Source: a bacterium
GTDB taxonomy: Bacteria > Patescibacteriota > Minisyncoccia > UBA6257 > JAGOQP01
Direction of reading: 5' to 3'
Assembly (NCBI GenBank): GCA_021844025.1
Contig: JAKBUF010000002.1
Coordinates: forward strand, 1 to 50,771
Length of the DNA: 50,771 nt
Shown: positions 2,480-28,639 of the stretch, piece after piece
How positions within the stretch are numbered: position 1 is the stretch's first letter
Layout of the letters: each line of letters starts with the position of its first letter
Notes under the pieces: generated by a model
Seen by the model: the letters and a program-made list of their open reading frames with translations, nothing else
Databases searched by the model: none
What the model was told of the DNA's origin: nothing
Made by a program: the position numbers and the translations under genes

Positions 2480-3304
2480 TTACCAATTCTGCGCTGGAAA
2501 TGCTCCCTTAATACCATTTTCTTCTTTATTTAGTTCCAAGACTTCATCCCCCTGAATGGTAATTTTACGAAATAGTGTATACATAGACGAAACATCTTTT
2601 TGCATGTTTTCAAGCGCAATACTCACATCATCTAGTGAAACAGCCACCGCAGGATCCTGCAGGGCATTTTGTAATTGATGTGCGGTGGTATCTATTTTTT
2701 GCATAAGAGTAACCGCTCCCGAAAATACTCCCTCAACAAAAGTGATGTCTTTGCCCTGATTTTTAGCGGCTATGATTTTATTTTGAATTGTTTGAAACCG
2801 AGAAGAGATTAATTGCTGAGTAGTGCGTTGAAAATATCCTATGTATACACTCAACACCGCTCGCTTGAGAGCAACTCCCTCAGTAGTACGGAAAGTATAT
2901 AAATTTGAAGCTAACGTACGTAAGTCCGCAGATGATTGAGCAGAAGCAATGTCGTTTTTATATCCGGTATACACTACCACATGTTGCGTAATACGATCCA
3001 ATAATGCACTCGCGATTGCTGGATTGAATATATCGGTTCTCTGTTCAATGGTGGTTTGTAATTGTGAAAGATATTCTAAAAAGGTATCTACTACCGAACC
3101 AAGAAATTGTTGCTGTTTAATAAATACAACCGGATTGGTGTCGGTTATTTGAGTGGCTACTGTGTCATTTATAGCTGGTTGTGATTGAGTTGGTACGGGA
3201 ACATACGCTGACTCCTGCGCAAAAACAGGAGTTCCTATTAAACCCAATAAACCAAAACCAACACTGTATATAATAATTGCTTTTGTTGAAATAATTTGTT
3301 TCAT
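2480..3304 (-). CDS. secreted hypothetical protein
   Basis: 274-aa ORF with a signal-peptide-like N-terminus ending VFAQES. No catalytic motif recognised. Confidence 0.7.
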   Translation of the reverse strand: MKQIISTKAIIIYSVGFGLLGLIGTPVFAQESAYVPVPTQSQPAINDTVATQITDTNPVVFIKQQQFLGSVVDTFLEYLSQLQTTIEQRTDIFNPAIASALLDRITQHVVVYTGYKNDIASAQSSADLRTLASNLYTFRTTEGVALKRAVLSVYIGYFQRTTQQLISSRFQTIQNKIIAAKNQGKDITFVEGVFSGAVTLMQKIDTTAHQLQNALQDPAVAVSLDDVSIALENMQKDVSSMYTLFRKITIQGDEVLELNKEENGIKGAFPAQNW

Positions 3305-3701: not shown

Positions 3702-4655
3702 TTACAGAGCTTGGGTAATACGTAATAGATTTTGCTGTACATATGCCTTATAGGGCCAAATATCAGAAAAGTCTCCCGTGGGGTCCAAAACCACAATACG
3801 TCGGGCACTATCGGGGTATAGTTTCTTAATATCATCAAAGGGTAAACTAAGATCCCCCACCACTATAGCGCGCTTATGTTTTTTTAAATAATCGGCTATG
3901 GACGCAATAGATGCGATTTTTTCTTGAGCACTCTGAATAGGATCGATGGTTTGAACAATATGTCCATTATATTCGGTAATAACCTCCTGCCATCCATCTC
4001 CCCACGTAATAACAGGGGCTACCCGTAAGTTAGACATAGGGTCCTTTACCGAACCATACACATTGTCCAACTGATACGCCACCGCATATGCATTATTCAA
4101 ATATTCAACCTTATGAACTGGATCAGCTTCACTTAATATTTTTGCAATTGCCCGTGCTAAATCTTTTCCCCCTTGAGTAGAGAGCCAGTAGTACCCCTTA
4201 TCTGCTCCCATTATAACGGGAGGTGCTTGGGTAGAAGGAGCTTGGGGAGAATCTTGATCAATAGAAGTACCAATATATGAATCTAAAAATACTTTTATCG
4301 GAGTAGAATCACGTGATCCACATATTTCTTGTATCCATCCGTCTAGTTGCGTATTGAGTCCAAAAAATACCGACGATTTATCACAAAGAGTTAACGGCGT
4401 TTCATCTATTTGGGCGGGAGGAGGTAATACCACCGTAGTTACATATGACCCCCCTATCTCTTGAATGAGGTTTGCTAAAAACTGATGCGATGCTCCTATC
4501 CGTAAAATGGGAGCGGGCGCGTCAATGGGACCCACTACCGTCTCGGGTTGTGGAAATAAAAGATGCCACACCACGAATAACCCAAGCACTATTAAAAATA
4601 CGGCCCCAAAAAGAAGTCCATGATATACAACTCTTTTTGAAATGCGCTTAATCAT
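3702..4655 (-). CDS. membrane-anchored ZnuA/TroA-like solute-binding-fold protein (tentative, metal ligands not evident)
   Basis: N-terminal TM segment. ILRIGASHQFLANLIQEIGGSYV...FGLNTQLDGW resembles the start of cluster-9 metal-binding proteins, but I do not see the usual His ligands. Confidence 0.5.
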   Translation of the reverse strand: MIKRISKRVVYHGLLFGAVFLIVLGLFVVWHLLFPQPETVVGPIDAPAPILRIGASHQFLANLIQEIGGSYVTTVVLPPPAQIDETPLTLCDKSSVFFGLNTQLDGWIQEICGSRDSTPIKVFLDSYIGTSIDQDSPQAPSTQAPPVIMGADKGYYWLSTQGGKDLARAIAKILSEADPVHKVEYLNNAYAVAYQLDNVYGSVKDPMSNLRVAPVITWGDGWQEVITEYNGHIVQTIDPIQSAQEKIASIASIADYLKKHKRAIVVGDLSLPFDDIKKLYPDSARRIVVLDPTGDFSDIWPYKAYVQQNLLRITQAL

Positions 4656-5935
4656 AGTGTGGTTGATGAAGAAGCATCAATAGGAATAATTCCTGAAGAA
4701 AATAGTATTGGTAATGGATCTTCATATCCAAAATCGGTTGGGTTAGAACTCGTATACCCAATGCATTGTGTCTTTTTCCCAGAGGGCAATATACACTCGT
4801 TGGGAATTGGAGATGCAAGTATGGGTTTATCTTTAATTTCAAAATGTAAATGAATATCTGGGTCCCCAACCGCATTACATCCGTCATCTCCCACGTGCCA
4901 ATATGCACATCCATAACCCGTGTTGCCTATAGTTCCTAATATTTCTCCAGACGTAACTGTTTTGCCCGTATAGAGAATTGGGCTTATGGCTGCTAAATGC
5001 CCGTACAATGCGTAGCGTGTTACTCCCTGTAGTTCGTGTTTTATAATAACCACATTCCCCAGTCCCCCATCGTCTTCTCCATTATGAACCAGAAGCGCAA
5101 CGGTGCCCGACGCAATCGCATACGCAGAAAGGTCGGTTGCGTCTTGTTTGGGAGCAAAATCAACGCCGGTATGTTGTATGTAATTTTCTTGTTTATCTTC
5201 GTGCCATGTCCATTCTGTTTTTAGTGGAGAGTTAAATCGTTGTCGAATCCAAAACTGATTCGTATGTACGGGTGATGCTAAAGAATCTTGTGTGTGGGCA
5301 TCGTCTAATGACAAATATGACACCACCGCATCTGTGCGCTGTGCGGTAGTATAAAAATCTTGCGCCACTGGATCAGATAGTCGAATACAACCACCAGAGA
5401 ATTTGCTCGTAACCCGATCACCATTGGTGTAATACGGAATCGCATGAATAAAAAAATCTTCATATAATTGTACCGCATGCTCCATCCATACCGGAAAAAT
5501 AGACGACATAAATTTTTCTCGTTTTACCCCAATCTCAAAATATCCCGTGGGGGTTTGAAACCATTTACCATATGGCGCTTGATATGCAATGGGAAATGTT
5601 TTTTCCAATATACCATGCTGGAAAAAGAGAATGACATTATGAGTAAGGTCAATTTGAAACAATCGCAAACGATTTATAAGCGGTAGTTCTCCACACCACC
5701 GTTGGTCGGCAGTGTTATATAAAACCGTGTTTTGGTCACACACCCAGGGAATATATTGGACAGTAGTAGAGGCAAGATTTGTCGTTGTTGCGTGTGGTGG
5801 TAAAGTTACCGGAACCAAAACCGACGATCGTTGCCGTGACACAAGAGAAAAAATCACAAACGCACCAATACCCGCAACAGCTACGATTAAATACGGAACA
5901 ATGAATAGTGGGCGCTTGTGCATACGCTTTATCAT
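4652..5935 (-). CDS. L,D-transpeptidase (YkuD) domain fused to an M23 metallopeptidase domain
   Basis: FIHAIPY...KFSGGCIRLSD is a YkuD-type His/Cys motif. HTGVDFAP ... LYGHL ... GNTGYG ... HLHFEI are M23 motifs. N-terminal TM anchor. Confidence 0.8.
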   Translation of the reverse strand: MIKRMHKRPLFIVPYLIVAVAGIGAFVIFSLVSRQRSSVLVPVTLPPHATTTNLASTTVQYIPWVCDQNTVLYNTADQRWCGELPLINRLRLFQIDLTHNVILFFQHGILEKTFPIAYQAPYGKWFQTPTGYFEIGVKREKFMSSIFPVWMEHAVQLYEDFFIHAIPYYTNGDRVTSKFSGGCIRLSDPVAQDFYTTAQRTDAVVSYLSLDDAHTQDSLASPVHTNQFWIRQRFNSPLKTEWTWHEDKQENYIQHTGVDFAPKQDATDLSAYAIASGTVALLVHNGEDDGGLGNVVIIKHELQGVTRYALYGHLAAISPILYTGKTVTSGEILGTIGNTGYGCAYWHVGDDGCNAVGDPDIHLHFEIKDKPILASPIPNECILPSGKKTQCIGYTSSNPTDFGYEDPLPILFSSGIIPIDASSSTTL

Positions 5936-5962
5936 AAATGAATGTTTCTATGCCCGCAATAC

Positions 5963-7108
5963 TTATGGGATAACCGTTCCCGGATTTTTTTCTTGTGCCC
6001 ACTCTACCACACGAGAGAGCGGAGTAGTGATTGCATCAACCGAGAACGAAGGGGTTGAAGTTGCCGTATAAAGAGTTACTACAACCGGCGAAGGATTTGC
6101 GTGCAGCGCATCAACGGGAATTGCCACTGATGAAATGAGCCCCCCTACCATGCATAAACGCCACGGGGTTTGCGCGGGAGTATATTGCGTATAGACGGGC
6201 GATCCTAACAACGTCGACATGAGCGGAGCTAAAACATTAGATTGAAATATTATTTTGTATTCCCGATCACACGAAGAAGCAGGAGAAACAAATGGAGAAA
6301 GATTTGTGTATGGTGTTTGCGCTAAAGCAAATGATTGTATGGCGCGTAACGGATCTATCTGTGTAAATGAGTGAAATATTCCCAACGATAATACGGCATC
6401 ACTAAAGCCGAATGCGCGCAACAGATGCACCTCCGCTGGCGCGGTTGAAAATTGTATCCACCGATTGTAGAGAAATGGATAGGGTAACGGGCCCTGAGCA
6501 ATATACATATATAAGGTATCGTGGCTATCGTGCACAATTGTAAACTGCCATGGGATCAGAGAATTTTTCTGCAAGAACATATCTATGCTTGCCTGAGGAG
6601 TGGGCTTTGAAACTACAGCCCCTCGCGCCGATACGGTGAGTGTATCTGAATTTGGTAATGAGAAAGTAGTAGTTGCCACTTTGTATGCAAGCACCGGCAC
6701 TTGTGATAAAGAAGTGAGCGCGCGATTAACTTGAGTTGTGTCTGCGGTTTGATACGCCCCAATTCCGGCTCCCAATGCCACCAATAGACTTACGATACCA
6801 CCACCAATAGCAATCGCAGCGCGACGGTGAGTTTTTGCCCATATTCGTATTCGGGTGGTTTTTGAAATTTGTGCGGTTGTGGGAAGTGTTTGTTGTAACA
6901 GTAAATCTTTTACACTTTTAATCCCTGCTTGTTCCAATACCACCGAGGCATCACGAGTCAGTAATCCCGCGTAATATAATTCATTAAACACCCGCTCAAC
7001 ATCGGAGGTGCTATGTCCTTGAGAAACCAGTGAACGAACTATCTCTCCCCGAGCAATTCCCCGGTGAGCCATATTAATAATTAATTGGTGCAATGCTTCA
7101 TCGTTCAT
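5963..7108 (-). CDS. membrane-anchored hypothetical protein
   Basis: 381-aa ORF with a cytoplasmic helical N-terminus, one TM segment (AIAIGGGIVSLLVALGAGIGAY) and an extracytoplasmic remainder. Confidence 0.65.
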   Translation of the reverse strand: MNDEALHQLIINMAHRGIARGEIVRSLVSQGHSTSDVERVFNELYYAGLLTRDASVVLEQAGIKSVKDLLLQQTLPTTAQISKTTRIRIWAKTHRRAAIAIGGGIVSLLVALGAGIGAYQTADTTQVNRALTSLSQVPVLAYKVATTTFSLPNSDTLTVSARGAVVSKPTPQASIDMFLQKNSLIPWQFTIVHDSHDTLYMYIAQGPLPYPFLYNRWIQFSTAPAEVHLLRAFGFSDAVLSLGIFHSFTQIDPLRAIQSFALAQTPYTNLSPFVSPASSCDREYKIIFQSNVLAPLMSTLLGSPVYTQYTPAQTPWRLCMVGGLISSVAIPVDALHANPSPVVVTLYTATSTPSFSVDAITTPLSRVVEWAQEKNPGTVIP

Positions 7109-7126
7109 ATTACTGGTACGGTGGTA

Positions 7127-8155
<1,029 letters not shown>

Positions 8156-17695: not shown

Positions 17696-18862
17696 CTACC
17701 GTATCACCCCTCCCCCCAGTACTGCCCCCTTTTTATCATAAAACACCACCGACTGACCTTCAGTTGGGAAAAGTTTATATTGGCTCTTTTTTTCTGGGTA
17801 TATAGTTAATACCTCCTCACGCATAATTACCCGTGCCTTAAATAAGGGCTGACGATACCGCACACGAGCAAACACAAAAACCTCTTCCCTGTTTTGTAAT
17901 TTATTTTTAAAATTCTCGTCTAAGAAATTTATTTGCTTGGCAGTAAAAATACTTGTATACAATGCCACATCTCCTTCCGGAGCCACCGTAATGGTATTTT
18001 TGTGCACGTCACGTGCTACTACAAACAACTCATGCCCCGTTGCATTATGAAATCCGTGCCGTTGCCCTAAGGTGTATAAAACTGCTCCCTCATGTGTACC
18101 AATTTTTTTCCCGCTAGTATCTATTACATCTCCCTGGCCATAGGGAATGTGTTGTTTAAGAAAATCAACAAACGAAAATTTTCCTAAAAAACAAACTCCC
18201 TGTGAATCTTTTTTGGTTGCGGTAAATAGCCCCGCCTTTTTTGCCAACGCGCGAACACGAGATTTTTTCAGTCCGCCAATTGGGAATAGTATCTTAGAAA
18301 ATCGCTCTCGAGGTATTTGCCATAGAAAGTATGACTGATCCTTGTTTGCATCCTTCCCCGCCTGTAATTTATATTTCGGTCCAATTGAAAATTGCCTCTC
18401 TGTGGGAGGTCTACCAAAGGGAGAAAAATTGAAAATTGAAAATTCGCGACAAAGTCGCGCATAGTGCCCCGACGCAATCGCATCCGCACCTAGCTTTATA
18501 GCTGCCTCATACAACAATCCAAATTTAATTTCACTATTACATACCACGTCCGGGTTTGGCGTAATTCCCTGCGCATATCCGTCTAATAAATATTTTACCA
18601 CCCGATTATAGTATTCTTGTTCAAAATCTAAAACATAAAAAGGGGTGTGTAGGGTTTCTGCCACCCGCCGCGCGTCGTGCGCTTCTCTGTCTTGGCATCC
18701 ATCTACATTATACCCCCGTATAAAAACCCCAAAAACCTCATACCCTTGCTTTTTGAGCAGATACGCAGCCACCGACGAATCCACTCCGCCTGATAACGCA
18801 ACGAAGACTTTAGGTTTAAGAGTGGTATCGGTATTCTTGTGTTTTGTCCAAATTCTTTCCAT
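17696..18862 (-). CDS. mnmA: tRNA 2-thiouridine(34) synthase MnmA; native 5' end displaced by the insertion
   Basis: PP-loop VALSGGVDSSVAA and KDQSYFLW motifs. The upper coordinate is the first in-frame ATG upstream of the PP-loop and is element-derived. The frame stays open further up into the recombinase. Confidence 0.85.
   Translation of the reverse strand: MERIWTKHKNTDTTLKPKVFVALSGGVDSSVAAYLLKKQGYEVFGVFIRGYNVDGCQDREAHDARRVAETLHTPFYVLDFEQEYYNRVVKYLLDGYAQGITPNPDVVCNSEIKFGLLYEAAIKLGADAIASGHYARLCREFSIFNFSPFGRPPTERQFSIGPKYKLQAGKDANKDQSYFLWQIPRERFSKILFPIGGLKKSRVRALAKKAGLFTATKKDSQGVCFLGKFSFVDFLKQHIPYGQGDVIDTSGKKIGTHEGAVLYTLGQRHGFHNATGHELFVVARDVHKNTITVAPEGDVALYTSIFTAKQINFLDENFKNKLQNREEVFVFARVRYRQPLFKARVIMREEVLTIYPEKKSQYKLFPTEGQSVVFYDKKGAVLGGGVIR
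18383..18445. repeat. degenerate repeat element inside the mnmA coding frame
   Basis: AATTGAAAATTGCC-TCTCTGTGGGAGGTCTACCAAAGGGAGA-AAAATTGAAAATTGAAAATTCG, translated as EFSIFNFSPFGRPPTERQFSIG. Confidence 0.65.
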
Positions 18863-20548
18863 TTTTGTTTGATTAATCGGACCGAGCGTGGCACCCGCAT
18901 TAAAGGTTCCGGGAAGGTCTTTTCTGCTGATTTCCCGTTCCTCAATTTTGTTGGGGAATGGTATTGTGGCAAAAATCTTGATCTTCTCGCCTTCTATGAC
19001 CACCTCATCGATTATAAGTTTGATAATATCTTTTTTTAGCCGTTCTGTCACGATTTTTGGATCGTTTATCTTACTCAAAAATCTATGGCAAGTTCCTTGA
19101 AAAAGGTCTATTTTGGCATTTACATTGTGTTGGACATTTAGTTTGTTCATCAAACCATCTCTTTCACTGATCAACTTTTCCTCACTTAGCTCAATGTCAG
19201 TTTTCTCTTTTCTGAATTCCGGAAGCGTCATAGCTTCAGCTTTGAACGCTTCGGTGATTCTTTTCTTGGCTACTTCAAGTTTGTTAATAGCACTGTTGAT
19301 ATAATCCAATCTTCCCTCTATGCTTTTTGCCCGATCTTCGTTTAGGACCGACTCATCTCGAAAAGCATTGAATACTTCCTCCGGACTGCTCAAAATTGAT
19401 TTGACCGCATTCCAGACTATTGGCTCTATTTGATCGGCTCGCACATATGGACTATGGCAGTTTTCCTGCGGAGTATTATTCATGCGACTTTTGCAGTAGT
19501 AATAAATAACACCGCTTTTTTCTTGATGACCGCGATAAACAAGCCCGTCTTTACCGCAACGGATCAGCCCTTGCAGTAAATAGGTTTGTTTGGTGCATCG
19601 TTTGGCAAACATCAGATTTTTTCTAGCCTGAAGCAAAGCTTTTTTATGCTGTTCCTCCGACACAATCTTTGGTATTGCTATGGGAAACCATTCCTCCCTC
19701 GGTCTTTTCAGTTGTCTGACTTTTGGCTTGCCTGTTCGTAAGTTGGCTACTTCAAGCTTCATTGTGTAATTCTTGCAACAATGCCAGCTTCCGGTATATG
19801 CCTCATTGGCCAAAACATTTCTTATTGTTACCTCGCTCCACCAGCCAATTGGGTATTTCTTCAAGCCTTTCATTTTCTTATTCTTTTCGGTGTTTTTCAG
19901 ACCGTCATATTTGGTTGGGATTTTTAGCTCGAAGAGTTTTGCTTGGATTTGCCGGATATTCAGCTTATCCTCGGTATACCAGTCATAGATCATTTTTACG
20001 ACTTTGGACTCGTTATCATCGAGTTCGTGTTTACCTTGTGCATAATTATATTTATAACCGAAAAGCGGCCGACCGCCGTTAAACTTCCCAGACTCAATTC
20101 TTCTTTTCATTCCTCGATGGGTTCGCTCCATAATTTTTGCTCGTTCAAATTCGCTGAATGCGCTCAGGATCGTAAAGAGTAGCTTGTCATTTGGTGTCGT
20201 ACCCAATTCTCCGGTCTTGAAGTGAATGGTGATATTTTTCTTCTTCAGTTCCTCAAGAATAATAAGCTGGTTGTATGTGTCTCGACCGATTCGATCGGCA
20301 TCATATACCAAAAAATACCCGACATCATCATGGGTTTTTATGTAATCCCGTAAAGCAGTAAGAGCTGGACGAATTAGAGTCGCTCCAGAGAATCCATCAT
20401 CAATAAAAACCATAGATTCATCTGGGACCGGTAACTTGTGGTTGTTGGCATACTGCAACATTCCACCAATGCCGTGAATTTGAGTATCTATGGTTTGATT
20501 ATTCTTTTGTTCCTCGGTGGATACCCGAGCGTATAGTACTGATTTCAT
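18821..20548 (-). CDS. large serine recombinase (integrase); no stop codon of its own, frame continues into mnmA
   Basis: Resolvase catalytic start MKSVLYARVSTEEQ, recombinase and zinc-ribbon region (CGKDG...YYYCKS), coiled-coil region, about 576 aa. A GTG start at 20581 is also possible. Confidence 0.9.
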
Positions 20549-20630
20549 ATTCTTATACTTATTTTTTGATTCACAACACACCCTACTCTATTTTTGACAA
20601 CAAGCTAAGTGTTAGTTGCCCACAGGTGCT

Positions 20631-21173
20631 TTACCGACTTTTTCCCGTCGCCACCCAGTCCAAAATCTTTTCCTCAGCTTCTTTTGGGTATTGATCTCTG
20701 GAAAGCTGTAACCGCATTTCATAGGGAATAATGTTCCAGCGATCCTCAACGGACAACTCAGCCAATTCTTCTTCACTGACGTGAATAGTTTCTTTCGGCT
20801 TGCCCTCGACCCGATCCAGTATTTCTTTTATCGCAGCTAATTTTACGGTATCGTTTGAGCTTCCCATAAGGGCAATGAGCATTTCGTTGGCTAGGCGGAA
20901 ATTTTGCTCTCTGACTCTGGCTCCGGCACGGCGGATGATAGACATTGTCTCAATATGAACCTTGTCCATTTCGGCTTCATAAAGGCGATAATCCTCACAA
21001 AGTGTTCCTGATTCCTTGAACCAATCTTTGATATTTTGTTCGCTAAATATGCCATTTCTACTTTTTGGCCACTTCTTGTTTAGAGTTTCAGCAATGCTTT
21101 GATATGAATTACCCTTATATTTCAACTCCAAAGCTAGTTTATGACTCGGTGATAAGTGTTTAATTTTTGGCAT
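20631..21173 (-). CDS. HTH protein, small-terminase-like or regulatory (tentative)
   Basis: N-terminal HTH-like segment (KLALELKYKGNSYQSIAETL). The internal motif VKLAAIKEILDRVEGKP is shared with the next ORF. Confidence 0.55.
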   Translation of the reverse strand: MPKIKHLSPSHKLALELKYKGNSYQSIAETLNKKWPKSRNGIFSEQNIKDWFKESGTLCEDYRLYEAEMDKVHIETMSIIRRAGARVREQNFRLANEMLIALMGSSNDTVKLAAIKEILDRVEGKPKETIHVSEEELAELSVEDRWNIIPYEMRLQLSRDQYPKEAEEKILDWVATGKSR

Positions 21174-21185
21174 AAAAAAGTGGAG

Positions 21186-21395
21186 TTAAGTAGAGTTTTT
21201 CTGACCTCTTTTTGGCACGATTATTGCCGGCTTTCCGTATACCCGATCAAGAATGTAGATCGCCGCCTCAAGCTTCACCATGTCGTCTTTGCTTTTTAGA
21301 AGTGAGACCAGAACCTCGGCCGCTTTTACGACATTTCTCTTGAACATATTTATGGCGTTTTCCATTTCTTCGCTGTATTTATTGTTTTTATTCAT
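21186..21395 (-). CDS. small protein sharing the VKLxA...ILDRVxGKP motif
   Basis: MVKLEAAIYILDRVYGKP parallels the motif in the product of 20631..21173. Confidence 0.5.
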   Translation of the reverse strand: MNKNNKYSEEMENAINMFKRNVVKAAEVLVSLLKSKDDMVKLEAAIYILDRVYGKPAIIVPKRGQKNST

Positions 21396-21397
21396 GG

Positions 21398-21886
21398 TTA
21401 TATTTTCATTGAATTTATTAATACTTCTTTATCCCTCACCAACGCATCAAAGGACTCGGTCTCGTGTTCTTCTGCACAAGTTCGTAGATATCGAAGTTCG
21501 TCTAAGGCACTTTGTCTGTTGCACCAATCCTCGTATGTCTTGAGATTGGGACCGACCGCCCAATACGCACCGGGAATATTGTGTTTTACATATCGGCGAG
21601 ATATAGCTCGAGTTTCCAGTAAGTGTTGAACTATACCGGCGTCGGTCAGTCCGGTAACGTTGTTGTATACTCGTCTGGGATTTTGGCTTTCTGGAAATTC
21701 TCGGCCACCCATTCTGAAGGTTTTTATTATTAGTTTTGGTTCGCCATAATACTCCAACGAGTTTTTAAGTGGCACAGTTTTTAACTGTTCAAGCAAAGTC
21801 TCAAAATCTCTGATCTCTTTTCTAAACTTAGGATTATCCAGATCACATCCGCTTTTTATATTCTCTTGTTTTTCAGTGTATTTCAT
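21398..21886 (-). CDS. hypothetical protein (element)
   Basis: 162-aa ORF whose start overlaps the upstream gene's stop by 4 nt. No motif recognised. Confidence 0.6.
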   Translation of the reverse strand: MKYTEKQENIKSGCDLDNPKFRKEIRDFETLLEQLKTVPLKNSLEYYGEPKLIIKTFRMGGREFPESQNPRRVYNNVTGLTDAGIVQHLLETRAISRRYVKHNIPGAYWAVGPNLKTYEDWCNRQSALDELRYLRTCAEEHETESFDALVRDKEVLINSMKI

Positions 21887-22650
21887 ACGATGAATTTAAA
21901 GAGGGTTTCCAGAGTATATTTCTTAAGCCAGCCGGCTTTGACTGCTTCTTGGATTTTCTTAAATCCCTCGATCAGTCGTTTATCCTCAAAGGGTTCAAGG
22001 TTCTTGGCTGGTCTGACATTTCGTCTGATAAAAGCCTCCCACTGATTTTTGGTTTGAAAATCCGGTTCGATCGTATCTGCCCAGTTGCCAATAATGCGAA
22101 TATGTTTATGGGGGCTTGTCTCGCACCATTTCACAAATTCTTTGAGTGTCATCGGGACCTCGGCGATCTGTGCTTTAACTTCTTCTTTCTTCTTCAAGGG
22201 TTCTTCTTTGTGCTCAATGGTTGAACGCTTATCGTTCACCAGTTGCGCGCTTTCATTCATTGGTTGAATGCTTAAAGGTAAGCGTTCACCATTTGAACGC
22301 TTTGATTTTTCCTCGTAATGCCTGATATTCAAAGACCACAAATCAATGATCCGGTATTCGATCGTCTGCTGATTTGTCTCTCCGGTGGCTCTTTTACCGA
22401 TAACCTCAATCCAACCTCGCTCGACCAGCTTTTTCTGATACTTGGCTACGGTGTTTCTTGAGCAATCCAATCTTTTAGCAATTTCCATCGCCGACATCCA
22501 GCACGTGCCTTCTTCGCCAGCCACGCGCTTCATGTATAAATAAATGGCCTGTTCGTAGACCGTCGAATGATTGACGATGTAGTTCGGGATAATCGTGAAG
22601 TATTTCCGGTCTCCGCTTTTGTCTATGATCTTGAATGGGTCGTTTCGCAT
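21883..22650 (-). CDS. winged-HTH protein, replication-initiator or organiser-like (tentative)
   Basis: FTIIPNYIVNH...YLYMKRVAGEEGTCWMSAMEIAKRLDCSRNTVAKYQKKLVERGWIEV is a typical N-terminal wHTH of plasmid and phage replication proteins. Confidence 0.6.
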   Translation of the reverse strand: MRNDPFKIIDKSGDRKYFTIIPNYIVNHSTVYEQAIYLYMKRVAGEEGTCWMSAMEIAKRLDCSRNTVAKYQKKLVERGWIEVIGKRATGETNQQTIEYRIIDLWSLNIRHYEEKSKRSNGERLPLSIQPMNESAQLVNDKRSTIEHKEEPLKKKEEVKAQIAEVPMTLKEFVKWCETSPHKHIRIIGNWADTIEPDFQTKNQWEAFIRRNVRPAKNLEPFEDKRLIEGFKKIQEAVKAGWLKKYTLETLFKFIV

Positions 22651-22654
22651 AGAT

Positions 22655-22915
22655 TTATTTTGACTCGTGCAAAAGAGCCTTGAGTTTACGGATAGCGGAA
22701 ATGAAATCCCTCACACTGACTTCAGCATCCTCGGCAAAGTTATATTCATCAGTGAGTATCTGTCGGCTTGGCGAGTCAATAAACACAAAGGACCGACGAT
22801 CTAAATCATCGGTTTGATCTAAACCAACCAGCTGGATACCTTTGGCCAACAAAAAACAGCTCAAATAGAAGCTGGTGGTGCTATATGTTGGCGTGTTTGA
22901 TTTTTTGGTTTTCAT
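22655..22915 (-). CDS. small phage/plasmid-type protein (DUF5659-like, from memory)
   Basis: Start taken at MKTKKSN. FYLSCFLLAKGIQLVGLD...FVFIDS resembles the DUF5659 pattern and needs HMM confirmation. Confidence 0.45.
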   Translation of the reverse strand: MKTKKSNTPTYSTTSFYLSCFLLAKGIQLVGLDQTDDLDRRSFVFIDSPSRQILTDEYNFAEDAEVSVRDFISAIRKLKALLHESK

Positions 22916-23069
22916 AGTTATTTTTATTGTTAATTTGATTATTTTTATTGTTTTCCGGTTCTGGTAATGCAAGCAATAGATCCCACAGCTGACGCAGTCG
23001 GTCTTTCTTGTCTGGCGATTCCCTATAAATAAATTCCGTTTGGAATTTAGGAAATCTTTTTATTCTCAT
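22881..23069 (-). CDS. small ORF at the head of the replication/regulatory operon (weak)
   Basis: 62 aa with a low-complexity Asn/Lys tail. It overlaps the next start. Confidence 0.3.
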   Translation of the reverse strand: MRIKRFPKFQTEFIYRESPDKKDRLRQLWDLLLALPEPENNKNNQINNKNNYENQKIKHANI

Positions 23070-23089
23070 CTTGATTTTTTTACATAAAA

Positions 23090-23139
23090 CGCAAAAAGCT
23101 CGCGATCGATTACCACAAATGTGATATCCAATCGCGAGC
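23090..23139 (-). terminator. putative terminator after the envelope-protein operon
   Basis: 9-bp stem GCTCGCGAT/ATCGCGAGC (23098-23139), followed on the minus strand by TTTTTGCGTTTTATG. The 24-nt loop is long for an intrinsic terminator. Confidence 0.4.
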
Positions 23140-23262
23140 CCTTGAACTCGGAATCCCTTTCAGGTCTGCCCCGTGAGGCAAAAATTTATTTAGTTGTTAC
23201 AGTTATTATAACATTGTCTGAAAATTCTTTGCAAGAAGATCGGCTGTGTATAAATATCATAA

Positions 23263-23979
23263 TTAGAAAATATCGTCAGGAGAACTTTTGGCTAATTCAC
23301 TTATTTCATTCTCCAACCTAGAATATTCTTCCTTAGCTTGTTCTTTGGAAATATCCTGCTCCCATTGGGAGTGCAAAAGCCCTTCAATAAAAGGACTTTT
23401 GCTTTTAAGTCTATCCTGGTGAATCCTTTCCAAAACTAAAAGTTTTTTAGTCCATTCATTTAGCTTTGGTAAATCATTGTTTAGAAGATAGTCCATCTTA
23501 CTTGCAAGAAAAGTAAAATTTACAGGCACTACGGGCTGACCATTTATATATAAATCCTCAAGGCGTGTCAGCGTGTGGTTGGTAGAAATTATATTGAAAT
23601 TCAGTCGGTCTATACTCATCCGATATGAAAAAACTTTGTTAGTTAAATCCAAACTACCTAACTCCATTTCGATTTCTTCAGGTATAGCAAACGTACTTAA
23701 TCTATTGCTAGTAGTGTGATTCTTTTTTAGAGATGCTGAAGTATCTTTTATTACAGTTTCAATAACACCAAACTCGTGAAGGTGTTTCATTAGTACTCTA
23801 TCCAACTTAACTAAAGTATTTTTATGCTGAACAAAACGTTCGCGCCGTTTGGTTATCCAGTATGCAATAAGCCCAAAAACAAAAGCAAAAAAGGCACCGG
23901 CAAACGCACCCCAGAAACTTGAAAGGCCTGCTGAATCGTTAGAATGATTAAGGAAGTGGTGGTAATAATAAAAATCCAT
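23263..23979 (-). CDS. N-terminally anchored membrane protein, unknown function (element cargo)
   Basis: One TM segment (FWGAFAGAFFAFVFGLIAYWI) followed by KRRERF, which suggests a cytoplasmic C-terminal domain. Confidence 0.7.
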   Translation of the reverse strand: MDFYYYHHFLNHSNDSAGLSSFWGAFAGAFFAFVFGLIAYWITKRRERFVQHKNTLVKLDRVLMKHLHEFGVIETVIKDTSASLKKNHTTSNRLSTFAIPEEIEMELGSLDLTNKVFSYRMSIDRLNFNIISTNHTLTRLEDLYINGQPVVPVNFTFLASKMDYLLNNDLPKLNEWTKKLLVLERIHQDRLKSKSPFIEGLLHSQWEQDISKEQAKEEYSRLENEISELAKSSPDDIF

Positions 23980-23985
23980 AAAGCA

Positions 23986-24786
23986 TTACTGCGTCAGCTT
24001 ATAGGCTTTCTGTTCTTCATAGGTTTGAAATGTGAGACTTAATTGAAGAACTTTTGCCGCCAAAAGGTAGGTATTCTTATTGTAATCATTGAGAGAAGAT
24101 CCGAACGCTCTCTGAATTTCGCTAATGAGATCCTGTCGTTGGCTTGACGACAATGAGTATTTAATTGGACCCGTGGCCTCGCCTTGCTCAACAGGTAACT
24201 GAATCAAACCTTTGGTAATGACGAGAAGGATTTTGTTTTGGAACAGATCTTTTTGAAGTGTATCCTGTGCCGCGGCGTATTGTGCAATATCGTACTTTAT
24301 TTGTTGTGGATTAAGCGTATCTGGTGTTGCGGTACGCAATGCTTCACTGATCTTTTGATTAGCGTTTTTTAATGTAAGAACATCAGCGTAAAGTAAAGTC
24401 GTGACAGACTTAATGCTGTCATCTTTATCATTAACATATGACTGCAAAGAAGACACTGCACCCATGAGGTCTGAGTCAATCCCTAACATTGCTGTTGTTT
24501 GTTGTATATCCTGTGAAGACGTGGGGTATCTAGTCTGAGCGTCAGTCAATTCTTGAGTTGTAAGATAAAGACTATGTAGTACATTAATTATCGAGGATAA
24601 ATAGGAATACATGTGATCCGCAGACGCACTTACTTGCCCATTCGTCTTATTTTCTACAGCAGAAACATTTCCATTTGTAGTTGAGGATTGAGTTGCAGAA
24701 TTGCTAGAACTTTGCCAAGAAAAATAAATAATCGCTAAAATGATAATAATGATAACTGCTATTCCAACTGATGTTTGTTTTTTCAT
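23986..24786 (-). CDS. anchored or secreted protein, unknown function (element cargo)
   Basis: N-terminal TM or signal segment (VGIAVIIIIILAIIYF), a Ser/Thr-rich linker and a helical remainder. Confidence 0.7.
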   Translation of the reverse strand: MKKQTSVGIAVIIIIILAIIYFSWQSSSNSATQSSTTNGNVSAVENKTNGQVSASADHMYSYLSSIINVLHSLYLTTQELTDAQTRYPTSSQDIQQTTAMLGIDSDLMGAVSSLQSYVNDKDDSIKSVTTLLYADVLTLKNANQKISEALRTATPDTLNPQQIKYDIAQYAAAQDTLQKDLFQNKILLVITKGLIQLPVEQGEATGPIKYSLSSSQRQDLISEIQRAFGSSLNDYNKNTYLLAAKVLQLSLTFQTYEEQKAYKLTQ

Positions 24787-24793
24787 AAGTTTT

Positions 24794-25738
24794 TTATGGG
24801 GTAGAAATTTTATTTGTATCTAAATGAACAGTCAAAGAGGGGCCCGAATTCGCTGAATTAATATGGACAGTACTTAAATCGACAAATGCAATGTCTGTCG
24901 GCCATTCATACATATCGGATGGAACATAGAGGATAAAATACTTACCTTGCGTCTTATCAAGACCAACAACCACTCCTTTGAAGTACGAGACGAATTTATA
25001 ATTGTTGTTTTCTAGCGAACCAGTGACTGTCGTCCCGTTCCATTGGTCGAACAAATTTGTGTCATAGTAAGTAAACTTCACCGGTACGGCGTAGTTCATC
25101 ATGGCAGTCCAAATGTTTTCGTTATCGAGTTGCCATTTTTGAACGGCATTATCAGCGGAATTTACATCCAAATTTTGCTGACTAGTATGGGCAATCTTAG
25201 GTGATTCTGCTATTTGCTGAGTGAGATAATCATATACAGCTTTATTGCTCTGTACGTCGCTATTTACCTGACCGGGTTGATTTATATTTCCATTTCCACC
25301 TGAAACACTCATGCTGTACAGGTGTGCCTGTGATGGCGAAAAAAGATTAAATGCAACTGTTCCAGCCGCACTTCCATAACTTTCCGTTACGAAGTAAATA
25401 TAATACGAACCACCGAGCTTAACTTTCTTTGCATCTGACGGACATTCTAGTGTTCCACAAACAATTTGGACCGATTCTGATTGTTCTTGCCATAAATCCG
25501 CAACTTGTTTCAAAACCAAAAGCCGTGACTCGTTATATTTACCATCAGCAATACTTCCAACAATGTAATAATCGCCGTTATCTCGGACCGCAATAGAGAA
25601 CGTTGGATTTTTTACATATTGATGTTGGACAATTTGAGCCGCTTCTTGATCCGACATCGTTGGCTTTTCATAAAAAGCAAAAAATGCACCGACAGCAACT
25701 ATGACGATAACTATTCCGATCCAGCTTTGTTTATTCAT
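24794..25738 (-). CDS. anchored or secreted protein, unknown function (element cargo)
   Basis: N-terminal TM or signal segment (WIGIVIVIVAVGAFFAF) and a beta-rich remainder. Confidence 0.7.
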   Translation of the reverse strand: MNKQSWIGIVIVIVAVGAFFAFYEKPTMSDQEAAQIVQHQYVKNPTFSIAVRDNGDYYIVGSIADGKYNESRLLVLKQVADLWQEQSESVQIVCGTLECPSDAKKVKLGGSYYIYFVTESYGSAAGTVAFNLFSPSQAHLYSMSVSGGNGNINQPGQVNSDVQSNKAVYDYLTQQIAESPKIAHTSQQNLDVNSADNAVQKWQLDNENIWTAMMNYAVPVKFTYYDTNLFDQWNGTTVTGSLENNNYKFVSYFKGVVVGLDKTQGKYFILYVPSDMYEWPTDIAFVDLSTVHINSANSGPSLTVHLDTNKISTP

Positions 25739-25743
25739 AAAAT

Positions 25744-26919
25744 TTATTTAAATAACCAGCTAAACATTCTCTGATACCACGGTATATTGTTTCCTGCCCC
25801 TGAACCAGATTGAGTAGTGGTTGCGTCTTTTTTGACCGATAAAGTAGGAGTAATTACTTTGGTCTCTGTTTTAGGCGGAGTCGGTGTTGAGATTGTTGGT
25901 GGCGGAATACATGCTGTTCTTGCACTATTCCATACATAGTTGGTTTTACAATTGCAGTTTAAGTTTCCATCATTCGTCTTTGTGCCGTCCCAGCTAACAT
26001 TTACTCCAAAATCATCTTGGCAGAGTTGGTCATTTGATTTAATTGGGACAACAGGTTCAATTATGCAACTTGTCCTCTGGGTATTCCAAATGTAGCCGGT
26101 TTTGCAACTGCATCCCAATCCTTTTTCAACAGTGCCAGTTCCATCCCAATTACTATTTATTCCAAATTCATCATTACACCTTTGATCATTTGTTTTGTTG
26201 GGAACAGGGACGCAACCATCGTTCGTTGTATTAGGCTGATATCCAGTATTACATTGGCACTTGGTTGAGTCGGTGACTGAGGTATGTGAATTAATCGGAC
26301 AGGTATTTTGAGGTGCTGAATATGCTGATGTGTTTGAATAAGAAGTTCCTTGATATACACAGCTTGAACCACTTACCACATAGCCATAATTACATTTGCA
26401 CGATGATACCCCATCATAATAAGAATTGAGTGGGCATGTGGGCGTTGTGGGAGCAGTATAAGTTCCAGTATAAACACAACTTGTCTTGTTGTAATTTACG
26501 CTATAGCCGTAATTACATGAGCATTTACCAGACGAATTAGCAGAAGAATTCGCTGGACAAGTGCTGTATGTATTTCCACTTCCGTATGTCGTATTGCCGA
26601 TAGATTGATAGCTACTACCATCGCTTCCATATATTGAATTTCCTATGCTTTGATAAGAAGTGCCGTTGCTACTATAAGTCGTATTACCGATCTGTTGATA
26701 GGATGTTCCGTCATTGCCGTATGTTGTATTTCCGATGGTCTGGTAACTACTTCCGTCACTCCCATATATCGAGTTACCGATTTGCTGATAACTAGTCCCA
26801 TCATCGCAATATGTTGAATTTCCTATTCTTTGACAACTTGAGGCAATAACATCATTTGCGTTGAATGCAAACAGAGTAAGAAAAAATAAAATTGGTATAA
26901 AAAATATTATCTTTTTCAT
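25744..26919 (-). CDS. secreted repeat protein: 15-aa tandem repeats plus EGF-like Cys-rich modules
   Basis: Signal peptide. Then (SYQxIGNxxYGxDGx) six times, then CPxNS...CxCNYGY...C three times and NDQxC.DxFG.N..WDG....C.CKT.Y.WN...T.CI twice. ATG 26919 follows a GAGG; the track used a GTG at 26928. Confidence 0.75.
   Translation of the reverse strand: MKKIIFFIPILFFLTLFAFNANDVIASSCQRIGNSTYCDDGTSYQQIGNSIYGSDGSSYQTIGNTTYGNDGTSYQQIGNTTYSSNGTSYQSIGNSIYGSDGSSYQSIGNTTYGSGNTYSTCPANSSANSSGKCSCNYGYSVNYNKTSCVYTGTYTAPTTPTCPLNSYYDGVSSCKCNYGYVVSGSSCVYQGTSYSNTSAYSAPQNTCPINSHTSVTDSTKCQCNTGYQPNTTNDGCVPVPNKTNDQRCNDEFGINSNWDGTGTVEKGLGCSCKTGYIWNTQRTSCIIEPVVPIKSNDQLCQDDFGVNVSWDGTKTNDGNLNCNCKTNYVWNSARTACIPPPTISTPTPPKTETKVITPTLSVKKDATTTQSGSGAGNNIPWYQRMFSWLFK
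26566..26835 (-). repeat. 45-bp (15-codon) tandem repeats inside the secreted-protein gene
   Basis: Period read from the translation: S46, S61, S76, S91 and S106 each begin SYQ.IGN..Y. Confidence 0.7.
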
Positions 26920-26924
26920 AAACC

Positions 26925-27146
26925 TCACTTAATAAAATAGTTGATGTCTTTGTTGTAGATTTTCGCAAAAGTTTGGAGTTCAACAACGTCAACCCTTTGC
27001 TGTCCCGACTCAACATTAGAAATGTGCGATTGTGGTCGCCTCAATTTCTTAGCGACTTGCACCTGAGTCAATCCTGCCTCTTCACGAGCCTTTCGCAGTC
27101 GCTCGACAAAATAGGCGTATTCCTTTGTTCTTATTGACCTAGTCAT
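26925..27146 (-). CDS. XRE-family HTH transcriptional regulator
   Basis: LTQVQVAKKLRRPQSHISNVESGQQRVDVVEL is a typical Cro/CI-type HTH. Its stop lies 5 nt before the next start. Confidence 0.85.
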   Translation of the reverse strand: MTRSIRTKEYAYFVERLRKAREEAGLTQVQVAKKLRRPQSHISNVESGQQRVDVVELQTFAKIYNKDINYFIK

Positions 27147-27216
27147 ATACTACTATGTTCTATCTAAATATTCAATATCCAAAGTTTAGATATTGTGTAT
27201 ATGAGCCAAAAACGCT

Positions 27217-27258
27217 AACTTTATAAAGTTCTAGCATTTTGCATAACTTTATAAAGTT
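27217..27258. promoter_or_regulatory. two identical 14-bp palindromes (AACTTTATAAAGTT) in the divergent XRE/Fic intergenic region
   Basis: Copies at 27217-27230 and 27245-27258, 28 bp centre to centre. Each is a perfect palindrome. Confidence 0.6.
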
Positions 27259-27301
27259 TGGTAATATGGTAAATATCCATTACAAGCTAAATTGAGCTTT
27301 T

Positions 27302-28234
27302 ATGAATACACGTCAAAAACTAGAAGTAATTCAAAGAATGTTGGGTTTGACCCAGACAAAGCTAGCTGAAAGGTTTGGCGTGTCTTTCGCCGCTTTCAAC
27401 AGTTGGTGGACCGGTAAATCCAATCCCCGACCAAAAATGCAGGCTTCCATTGATGAGCTGTTTTTGGAAGTGACCGGACAAAAAACAATTCCCTCTGATC
27501 AACTGACAGCTAAAAAACAAGCCCTCCAACAAAAGTCCGGAGAATATAAAAGTGTTATAAATGAAATTTTAAATAACCCCGATATTCGTGACCAGTTTAT
27601 TTTGAAACTCACCTACCACAGTAACAGTATTGAAGGCAGTACACTTACCGAGCCGGACACTGCCGCAATCCTTTTTGACAACGCAGCTTTACCGAATAAA
27701 AGTCTGACCGAGCAACTAGAAGCAAAAAATCACCAGACGGCTTTAAATTATTTATTTGATCATATCGCCAAGAAAGAAAAAGTTGACGAGGCACTTGTGC
27801 TCAAACTCCACAGCATTCTCATGAACGGCGTTCGTCCGGACGCCGGTGTATATCGCAATCATGGTGTCAGAATCACCGGCGTTAATTTGCCAACAGCGAA
27901 CTACATGAGTGTTCCGAAATTGATACCAGAGGTTATGGCTCGCATCACTGAAAAAACTAAGGATATTGTGGCCTTATCCGCTGGCGTTCACAGTAAGTTT
28001 GAACAAATCCACCCATTCGGAGACGGCAACGGTCGTGTTGGTCGTTTGCTTATGAATGCCATGCTACTTAGTGCAAACTTTACTCCGGCCATCATTCGTC
28101 AGGAACAAAAACAGCTTTACTACACCTATCTTTATAAAGCTCAGACCAAAGAAGATCAGAGCCAATTGGAGGATTTTCTCTGTGAAGCAATTATGGACGG
28201 ATTCAAAATCTTGGACCGGACGGATATTCGGTAA
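27302..28234 (+). CDS. HTH-Fic protein (probable AMPylase, class II-like with an N-terminal inhibitory motif)
   Basis: Fic motif HPFGDGNGRVGR (28010-28045). Upstream SNSIEG fits [ST]xxxE[GN]. N-terminal HTH LGLTQTKLAERFGVSFAAFNSWW. Confidence 0.9.
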   Translation: MNTRQKLEVIQRMLGLTQTKLAERFGVSFAAFNSWWTGKSNPRPKMQASIDELFLEVTGQKTIPSDQLTAKKQALQQKSGEYKSVINEILNNPDIRDQFILKLTYHSNSIEGSTLTEPDTAAILFDNAALPNKSLTEQLEAKNHQTALNYLFDHIAKKEKVDEALVLKLHSILMNGVRPDAGVYRNHGVRITGVNLPTANYMSVPKLIPEVMARITEKTKDIVALSAGVHSKFEQIHPFGDGNGRVGRLLMNAMLLSANFTPAIIRQEQKQLYYTYLYKAQTKEDQSQLEDFLCEAIMDGFKILDRTDIR

Positions 28235-28391
28235 TTAATACCAGTCATATTTGCTTAAGTTAAGCAAATCGTCCCAAGCTCTCAAAATTCGGTCACAATC
28301 GTTTTCAGTTTCCGAATCGGTACAAATCTCTTACTCTTGATATAAAGCTCGTCACACGGGCACCTAAAGGATAATAAACTAAATACAAAAA

Positions 28392-28411
28392 CGCCCGAGT
28401 GGGCGATTTTT
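28392..28411. terminator. bidirectional hairpin terminator at the right end of the element
   Basis: AAAAA-CGCCC-GAGT-GGGCG-ATTTTTG. An A-run precedes the GC stem and a T-run follows it. Confidence 0.6.
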
Positions 28412-28432
28412 GTTTAAACTTTCTTTTCTTGT

Positions 28433-28537
28433 TTATCTGTTGACTAAAGCATGGTCAATCCCTAGCTGAATCTTTAACCCTTCATTTGTGTATGTCACTA
28501 CGCAGATTTTAAGTTTTTTCTGCCTAAAAAACGCCAT
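28433..28537 (-). pseudogene. displaced 5' end of mnmA (first 10 codons) fused to element sequence
   Basis: ATG GCG TTT TTT AGG CAG AAA AAA CTT AAA | ATC TGC GTA ... TAA. The CTT AAA is in the same frame as at the left junction. Confidence 0.6.
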
Positions 28538-28639
28538 GCGAACACTATATCAAAATTTAGGCATAAGAAAAGCCACACCAAAAAACAGCCATTCCAGCTG
28601 TCTTTTTATATTTGAAAATTAAATAATTAAAAATTTATT

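Follow-up and report, generated by a model that had tools for sequence, protein, structure and literature searches.

In the window (the whole 50,771-nt stretch of contig JAKBUF010000002.1 that was analysed), the 5' end of mnmA, the gene for the tRNA-modifying enzyme tRNA 2-thiouridine(34) synthase, is occupied by an integrated element of 9,699 bp (18803..28501, minus strand, counting one copy of the crossover GT). The explanation that we favor, and consider probable as a whole, is that this is a plasmid-like integrative element of a CPR (Parcubacteria) bacterium, inserted by its own large serine recombinase (LSR) at a GT dinucleotide. Insertion fuses the LSR frame to mnmA; the free form of the LSR would end in a tail that now lies at the opposite end of the element, and the last LSR codons would provide a surrogate 5' end that keeps MnmA.

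Besides the LSR, the element carries a DnaD-like/HTH_36 replication initiator (21883-22650), a DUF5659 protein (22655-22972), an HTH-Fic protein that is its sole plus-strand gene (27302-28234), and six proteins of unknown function. Several small ORFs of the element have no known function, and no candidate for a recombination directionality factor that would act in excision was identified. No phage structural genes were found between the two junctions. The product of the first gene of the minus-strand array (25744-26928), 394 aa long and rich in cysteine, has weak EGF/TIL-like matches and is an unusual cargo for a small integrative element. The locus lies between efp and tsaD. At the corresponding locus of a sister genome (L032) the element is absent and the order reads efp-mnmA. 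The two genomes differ also downstream of mnmA: where the window has tsaD, L032 has at 5771-7176 a 291-aa unannotated ORF, a 68-aa ORF, a bAvd gene and a reverse transcriptase, a set that looks like a diversity-generating retroelement.

The fused gene and the crossover site

The LSR and mnmA form a single ORF of 961 codons (17696-20581, minus strand), the translation of which runs stop-free from the recombinase domains into a complete MnmA, as had been proposed in a preliminary description of this DNA. Pfam matches in the recombinase half are Resolvase at residues 15-166 (1.7e-29), Recombinase at 190-319 (2e-12) and Zn_ribbon_recom at 335-394 (1.4e-13), and the N-terminus carries YARVSTEEQ, the catalytic serine motif of resolvase-type domains. 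The LSR arrangement of a Recombinase domain and a zinc ribbon with an inserted coiled coil is seen in the Pfam matches and in the long helices of the structural model. The MnmA end matches tRNA_Me_trans at 591-801 (PF03054, 3.9e-66) followed by the M and C domains (PF20259, PF20258), corresponding to HUP (tRNA_Me_trans), PRC-barrel and C-terminal barrel domains.

Translation of the LSR probably starts at the ATG at 20548-20546, since all homologues start there with MKSVLYARVS. Counted from this ATG, the protein of the integrated state would have 950 amino acids. The element encodes its first 583 codons (18801..20548, minus strand, from the ATG to the crossover GT), and this part has no stop codon of its own. 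The host part of mnmA (17696..18800, minus strand) extends from the third base of Val13 via ALSGGVDSS... to the stop at 17696-17698. It contains the PP-loop motif SGGVDS and both catalytic cysteine motifs (PDVVCN and SQGVCF) that identify MnmA, is 97% identical to the uninterrupted sister protein P0121, and gives a pN/pS of 0.09 against the sister gene.

An AlphaFold (AF2) model of the fusion was built with 134 aligned sequences. In this model the LSR is folded to about residue 528, with a coiled coil at 389-494 (helices 389-436 and 442-494), and is followed by a low-confidence linker (residues 532-576, pLDDT below 50). From residue 580 the pLDDT is about 97, and KVFVA (580-584) forms the first strand (beta1) of the MnmA PP-loop domain. 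The peptide that bridges linker and MnmA is IWTKHKNTDTTLKPK. At the DNA level, synonymous conservation is elevated over the last 90 or so LSR codons, in a comparison of six sequences only. A lineage-specific insert in the host MnmA, FSIFNFSPFGRPPTERQFSIG (model residues 705-722), is modeled with low confidence, and close relatives vary at this position.

Three independent lines, i.e., the left junctions, the right junctions and the empty site, place the crossover at the dinucleotide GT in mnmA codon 13 (Val), just before the PP-loop motif SGGVDS. At the left junctions of nine CPR loci, identity of the element DNA continues through ...CTCTTAAA(CCT/AGA)AA(A/G)GTCTTCGT and ends directly after GT, which in the window is the pair of first bases of the Val codon GTT (attL, 18801..18802, minus strand). 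The bases past this GT vary with the host (GTT GCG TTA, GTC GGG CTT, GTC GGA ATG, and so on). For the right side, a metagenome scan with the P' arm gave 15 additional junctions, which together with those of L009, L011 and the window represent ten distinct host arms (..KIC, ..KVF, ..KVFF, ..KVL, ..KVI, ..RVF, ..LVF and others). Each of these arms abuts GTAG(T/C)(G/A)ACATACAC, with the crossover GT of attR at 28500..28501 on the minus strand, so that attL and attR have only GT in common. The empty site agrees: the uninterrupted mnmA P0121 at L032 starts MFFKKQKKLKICVALSGGVDSS and reads MFFKKQKKLKICV^ALSGG (caret, position of the crossover), with the DNA ...AAA ATT TGT GTT GCT TTA TCG.

Read from these junctions, the sites have what is expected for a serine integrase, a non-palindromic 2-bp core with little other identity between the att sites. 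The predicted junction of the circle is AAAGTCTTCGT^AGTGACATACAC and that of the empty site AAAATCTGCGT^TGCGTTATCAGG. The native MnmA reconstructed in this way has 380 amino acids and begins MAFFRQKKLKIC-V-ALSGG, i.e., MAFFRQKKLKICV^ALSGG. Dyad symmetry in the in-silico attP is weak (GTC...GT...GAC) and uninformative.

The hexamer CTTAAA, which had been put forward as the core, was rejected. Its distance to the breakpoint is 12 nt on the left side versus 6 nt on the right, and it is absent from the attR of L011 and from the sister attB, where the empty site has TTGAAA. Being out of register, it is best seen as a coincidence of Lys-rich codons. The crossover thus maps elsewhere than first described, which had been named in advance as an outcome that might disconnect the two frames, yet the frames still connect. 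The assignment of PKVF to the host, in a native N-terminus ...KKLK^PKVFV, was also mistaken, as PKVF is element sequence.

The displaced mnmA start and the candidate integrase tail

At the far end of the element, the minus strand from 28537 to 28433 translates as MAFFRQKKLKICVVTYTNEGLKIQLGIDHALVNR followed by a stop: the first 12 codons of mnmA run in frame into a tail of 21 codons. The displaced native start (28502..28537, minus strand; ATG at 28537-28535, MAFFRQKKLKIC) is still joined to its promoter, and the intact gene of the sister genome starts MFFKKQKKLKICVALSGG. As putative promoter we identified an extended -10 box, TGATATAGT (28544..28552, minus strand), located 6 nt before the ATG in an arrangement that would be of the leaderless type. 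The same layout of -10 box and ATG precedes several other genes in the window. A Shine-Dalgarno-like motif was found for only 2 of the 37 likely genes in the window and in several genes a TATAAT-like box precedes the start codon by 6-10 nt, which suggests that translation in this host is mostly leaderless or independent of Shine-Dalgarno sequences.

The segment 28433..28499 (minus strand) is the P' arm of attP and would also encode the tail of the free-form LSR; it comprises the third base of the Val codon, VTYTNEGLKIQLGIDHALVNR and the stop TAA (28435-28433). About 27 nt beyond this stop lies the hairpin CGCCC-GAGT-GGGCG (28392..28405) with an A-run and a T-run, which scores as an intrinsic terminator on both strands. 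Its folding energy is -15.6 kcal/mol (z = -3.7), and none of 200 shuffled sequences folded as well. The hairpin is kept in L011 and L018. The short tail, its stop and the terminator are present at the opposite end of the element, as the preliminary description had it, and would complete the LSR once the element is circularised. The further suggestion that the hairpin also serves the convergent fic gene is only plausible, since fic ends at 28234, at a distance of 158 nt, and has its own palindrome at 28253-28271.

Two families of tails were found. One, VVTYTNEGLKIQLGIDHALVNR followed by a stop, occurs in the window, L011 and L018, with the same terminator after each; the other, VATYTNEGLKFQMVLGPLKFE[PR]SKRG...PVATI and a stop, occurs in seven other hosts. 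The pN/pS values of the tails are 0.30 and 0.26 in the two families, calculated beyond the first nine codons because these belong to the P' arm and are constrained as DNA, and obtained from a small sample as sums over non-independent pairs. The tail indels, 3 and 4 codons long, preserve the frame, and neither the C-terminal PVATI motif nor the stop is lost. This pattern is that of a sequence evolving as translated coding sequence, which supports the earlier proposal that the tail belongs to the LSR; the only sizeable protein able to own it is the integrase of the circular form.

The non-coding block 28250-28390, between the terminator of the tail and the stop of fic, shows 85-90% conservation when the window is compared with L018 and L011. 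It holds the perfect palindrome TTTGCTTAAgTTAAGCAAA (28253-28271), and it is conserved although L011 has lost fic. The block may serve as an origin or an operator, or encode a small RNA, and a search of it for RNA structure or an Rfam family revealed nothing exceptional. In the Taylorbacteria relic L011 (6100-10000), other cargo now stands between attR and the LSR fragment: a 717-aa fusion of an AEP-TOTE primase and a ResIII/DEAD helicase, and an AAA_14/DUF4143 ATPase, both of the conflict-system type. A GC-rich insert of 170 nt follows the terminator there.

In an excised circle, the LSR frame would continue for 21 codons to the TAA at 28433-28435, giving a free form of 604 amino acids that ends in ...MERIWTKHKNTDTTLKPKVF-V-VTYTNEGLKIQLGIDHALVNR, and the terminator would end the integrase transcript. 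Integration would replace the 21-codon tail by about 367 amino acids of MnmA; the exchange of the tail for MnmA had been recognized before, with a length of 24 residues where 21 follow the shared Val. At the same time mnmA would be severed from its own promoter and first 12 codons. The native promoter would then drive only a stub of 34 codons that ends at the same terminator, which would keep transcription of this stub out of the element.

The free form was sought in several ways. Among the best 120 hits of a search of 5.8 billion proteins there was no free LSR of about 600 amino acids, only fusions or fragments at contig ends. A scan of viral contigs for free attP gave no hits, and all 15 metagenome hits were attR. 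The 10,965-bp contig L007, considered as a circular copy, has no terminal overlap and is not circular. Because protein, viral and metagenome searches did not return the attP form, we infer from the open frame and the in-frame coding tail, and not from an observed free form, that the recombinase gene straddles attP, as had been claimed at the outset. One LSR homologue of 558 amino acids (P0036) departs after ...ATIPLPNKIH into PVREKSLQRLKSRPQAQRSLTG and probably represents a copy with a frameshift or a gene call at the end of a contig, not a free form. Matches of the tail peptide GIEHALVN obtained by tblastn in L007 and L008 were spurious, as they lie out of frame inside a membrane-protein gene.

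The surrogate mnmA 5' end and the LSR-MnmA family

When the in-silico free-form LSR was used as the query, nearly all hits were LSR-MnmA fusions 915-958 amino acids long. Their hosts include Zambryski-, Ryan-, Taylor-, Doudna-, Azam- and Uhrbacteria and other CPR bins. About 57 database proteins share the junction M[EATK]RIW.KHK...LK[PRK]KVFV^[AG][MLV]SGGVDS, and an open junction was also found at nine genome loci. It had been considered that homologues might all end upstream of the junction, with a stop missing here only through an error; instead all are fused, and the occurrence of the same junctions in dozens of independent assemblies excludes a stop lost by sequencing error. Among 30 complete fusions, the LSR part has a mean identity of 90% (minimum 82%) and the MnmA part one of 47% (minimum 34%), and locus L005 has a 98%-identical LSR in a host with a very different MnmA. 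These data exclude a vertically inherited fused gene.

Several members of the family deserve separate mention. In L006, L008 and L010, attR was not found within 10 kb upstream of the LSR, and these elements presumably carry more cargo. The public records of P0002, P0009, P0013, P0014, P0017 and others omit the recombinase half, although the proteins are integrase-MnmA chimeras. The metagenome contig L030 (1558-4853) has a right junction at 1558, a truncated left-junction copy near 3170 (..TPLKRKVFV^ALSGGVDSSV, then divergent) and a separate full-length mnmA at 3753-4853 with the start MKRSQEAGEKKVFVALSGG; it may be a decayed element that carries a piece of mnmA beside an intact gene.

The segment 18803..18862 (minus strand), which is the P arm of attP, contains an ATG (18862-18860) and encodes MERIWTKHKNTDTTLKPKVF, the last 20 codons of the LSR. 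The Met and 19 codons up to KVF are joined in frame to V-ALSGGVDSS, so that an intact mnmA ORF is regenerated across the junction. All of the approximately 57 fusion and relic proteins have the KVFV motif and a Met 20 codons ahead of the crossover, and every indel between this Met and MnmA is in frame. In the window the nested Met is Met563, and an MnmA product starting there would have 388 amino acids. Since KVFVA is the first strand of MnmA in the AF2 model, residues encoded by the element are predicted to complete the fold of the host enzyme.

Stand-alone genes and relics carry the same piece. Two mnmA genes of normal size start at the homologous ATG: P0176, located 110 bp after efp, starts MNRIWNRYTTLKPKVLVALSGG (MNRIWNRYTTLKPKVLV...), and P0208 starts MERIWTKNKKVNSAIAARVFVGMSGG (MERIWTK...). 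In both, DNA homology to the element begins at the ATG, and a recombinase remnant was not found upstream of either. The nearest relatives of P0176 (74-79% identical) have ordinary N-termini, e.g., MGIFSKKTVVV, which makes the scar of a lost element the best reading of its start. MnmA is also intact in relics whose LSR is truncated or frameshifted (L011, L031/L009 and L008). In L011 only LSR residues 452-578 remain, and in a Uhrbacteria relic present on seven contigs the LSR is frameshifted, leaving only 94 in-frame codons before SGGVDS.

On these sequence comparisons, the best-supported reason for the architecture is that the last 20 LSR codons (Met-ERIWTKHKNTDTTLKPKVF) act as a replacement mnmA 5' end. 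MnmA of the integrated state would be made from element-derived transcripts, by initiation at the nested Met (388 aa), as the LSR-MnmA fusion with its flexible linker, or both. Because an intact MnmA could still be made after integration, the element would not knock out its target gene. Neither a Shine-Dalgarno motif nor a convincing conserved promoter was found just upstream of the nested Met; two promoter-like matches lie farther upstream (19051-19023 and 18972-18945). The surrogate 5' end could have arisen by capture of host sequence or by convergence. A candidate native source of the P arm, MINIWPIKQNT... in L018 and L029, proved to be an artefact, as its ATG falls within the YceG gene that lies upstream and belongs to a different frame.

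Alternative readings and comparison with known systems

The location of attP inside an integrase gene has a precedent in phage Mx8, where, as PMC6070905 (citing Tojo 1996 and Magrini 1999) and PMC4383910 describe, attP lies within int and integration gives the gene a new 3' end, so that the prophage integrase has a different C-terminus and altered properties. Modeled on this case, the main effect of the present arrangement might be on the integrase itself, with a 604-aa form that integrates, a 950-aa form altered in activity, stability or directionality, and MnmA rescue as a secondary matter. The C-terminus of the LSR does change upon integration, the tail is under purifying selection as a protein, and the Mx8 IntP/IntX pair is a precedent (PMC6070905); this reading is also compatible with the explanation that we favor. 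In the AF2 model, however, the folded LSR stops about 50 residues before the crossover and a low-confidence linker follows, so a bulky C-terminal domain need not matter and the exchange of the tail is not needed to explain the data. An effect on the integrase would also leave unexplained why the P arm mimics an mnmA start, with its Met and KVFV strand, and why stand-alone mnmA genes retain exactly that piece. We regard it as possible, while leaning clearly against it as the main function. A stronger version, in which the swap between a free 604-aa form and an MnmA-joined 950-aa form is a state sensor that tunes integration versus excision while the nested start keeps the host gene alive, appears doubtful. 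If true, it would be the first case of a serine-integrase system with different integrase proteins in its free and integrated states.

The source of MnmA in the integrated state can be read differently as well. The frame is continuous in all complete copies, no Shine-Dalgarno motif or promoter was found before the nested Met, and the linker, modeled as disordered, would let both halves fold, all of which is consistent with MnmA activity coming solely from the full fusion and the nested Met never serving as a start. The widespread Uhrbacteria relic has an intact MnmA behind a frameshifted LSR and 94 in-frame codons, and in P0176 and P0208 the gene begins with this Met and nothing of the LSR precedes it, which makes such exclusive use of the fusion unlikely. 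Large serine recombinases often have dispensable C-terminal extensions, and drift could have brought the att site within the 3' end of the LSR gene, leaving an open frame and a tail without function and a hybrid MnmA that is tolerated or inactive. Against such a neutral by-product stand the retention of Met, frame and KVFV in some 57 proteins despite several indels, the pN/pS of about 0.3 in the tail and 0.09 in MnmA relative to the sister gene, and the observation that the MnmA part is never disrupted, old relics included; we consider it quite improbable. A missing stop or a chimeric junction produced by sequencing or assembly has practically no probability, being refuted by identical junctions in dozens of independent assemblies from NCBI, ENA, JGI and Logan.

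The likeness to Mx8 IntP/IntX is one of architecture only, namely attP inside an integrase coding sequence: as in the Mx8 and SSV types, the integrase ORF lacks a stop before the crossover, which holds for every family member, and it would continue across attP into the in-frame tail. Unlike the enzyme described here, a large serine recombinase to which it is not homologous, Mx8 Int belongs to the tyrosine recombinases and targets tRNA genes. The new 3' end in Mx8 is short, whereas here the LSR gains the entire target-gene product as its tail, and the 3' end of the integrase gene doubles as the replacement 5' end of that target. Archaeal integrases of the SSV1 type also have an ORF that extends over attP and is altered by integration (PMC4383910; PMC8371274), but these are tyrosine recombinases of archaeal viruses with tRNA targets, in which int is split in two and inactivated without an in-frame host fusion. 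As a serine recombinase, the present enzyme is not a homologue of the Mx8 or SSV integrase. The preliminary description had drawn an analogy to mycobacteriophage repressors; in the integration-dependent immunity of the mycobacteriophages BPs and Brujita, the repressor gene contains attP, and its product acquires a different C-terminus upon integration (PMC4557955; PMC3694055). There a tyrosine integrase acts and integration removes a degradation tag from the repressor, whereas in our case the straddling gene is the integrase itself. No repressor straddles attP here, and the tails, which end in ...HALVNR or ...PVATI, are by inspection unlike ssrA-type tags.

Restoration of a target gene by an integrating element is familiar from phage 21 and e14 in icd. 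Such elements share with the present one that the target is split, that element sequence regenerates the gene and that the displaced fragment is found at the other end. Restoring a split target by island sequence is also the rule for tDNA islands (PMC4383910). Classical restoration concerns the 3' end of a tRNA or protein gene and relies on sequence identity, whereas here it would be the 5' end including the start codon, with a replacement that is non-identical (MERIW...KVF versus MAFFRQKKLKIC) and nested in frame inside the integrase ORF. LSR elements that insert in protein-coding genes at a 2-bp crossover include SPbeta (SprA/spsM), skin (SpoIVCA/sigK) and A118 (comK), as covered in part by PMC6957869 and PMC5025042. 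In these systems attP lies outside the recombinase ORF and insertion inactivates the gene until excision. Full-text literature searches gave no report of a serine recombinase that is fused to mnmA or another target, or that straddles attP in one. From this comparison and the lack of a matching full-text report, we conclude that the novelty lies in an Mx8-type architecture in a serine integrase, combined with an apparent 5'-end gene restoration nested in the integrase ORF.

Integrases are known to break their target (comK, sigK, spsM) or to restore its 3' end; in the system described here the 5' end is apparently restored. As far as could be found in the literature, this is the first serine integrase with an ORF that crosses attP, and LSR discovery pipelines that expect attP outside the integrase gene would misplace the attP of the LSR-MnmA family. 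The LSR family is 90% conserved and moves among very different CPR bacteria via the nearly universal coding sequence of the PP-loop. Given this conservation and spread, it is possibly a candidate integration tool for CPR bacteria, organisms for which no genetics is available.
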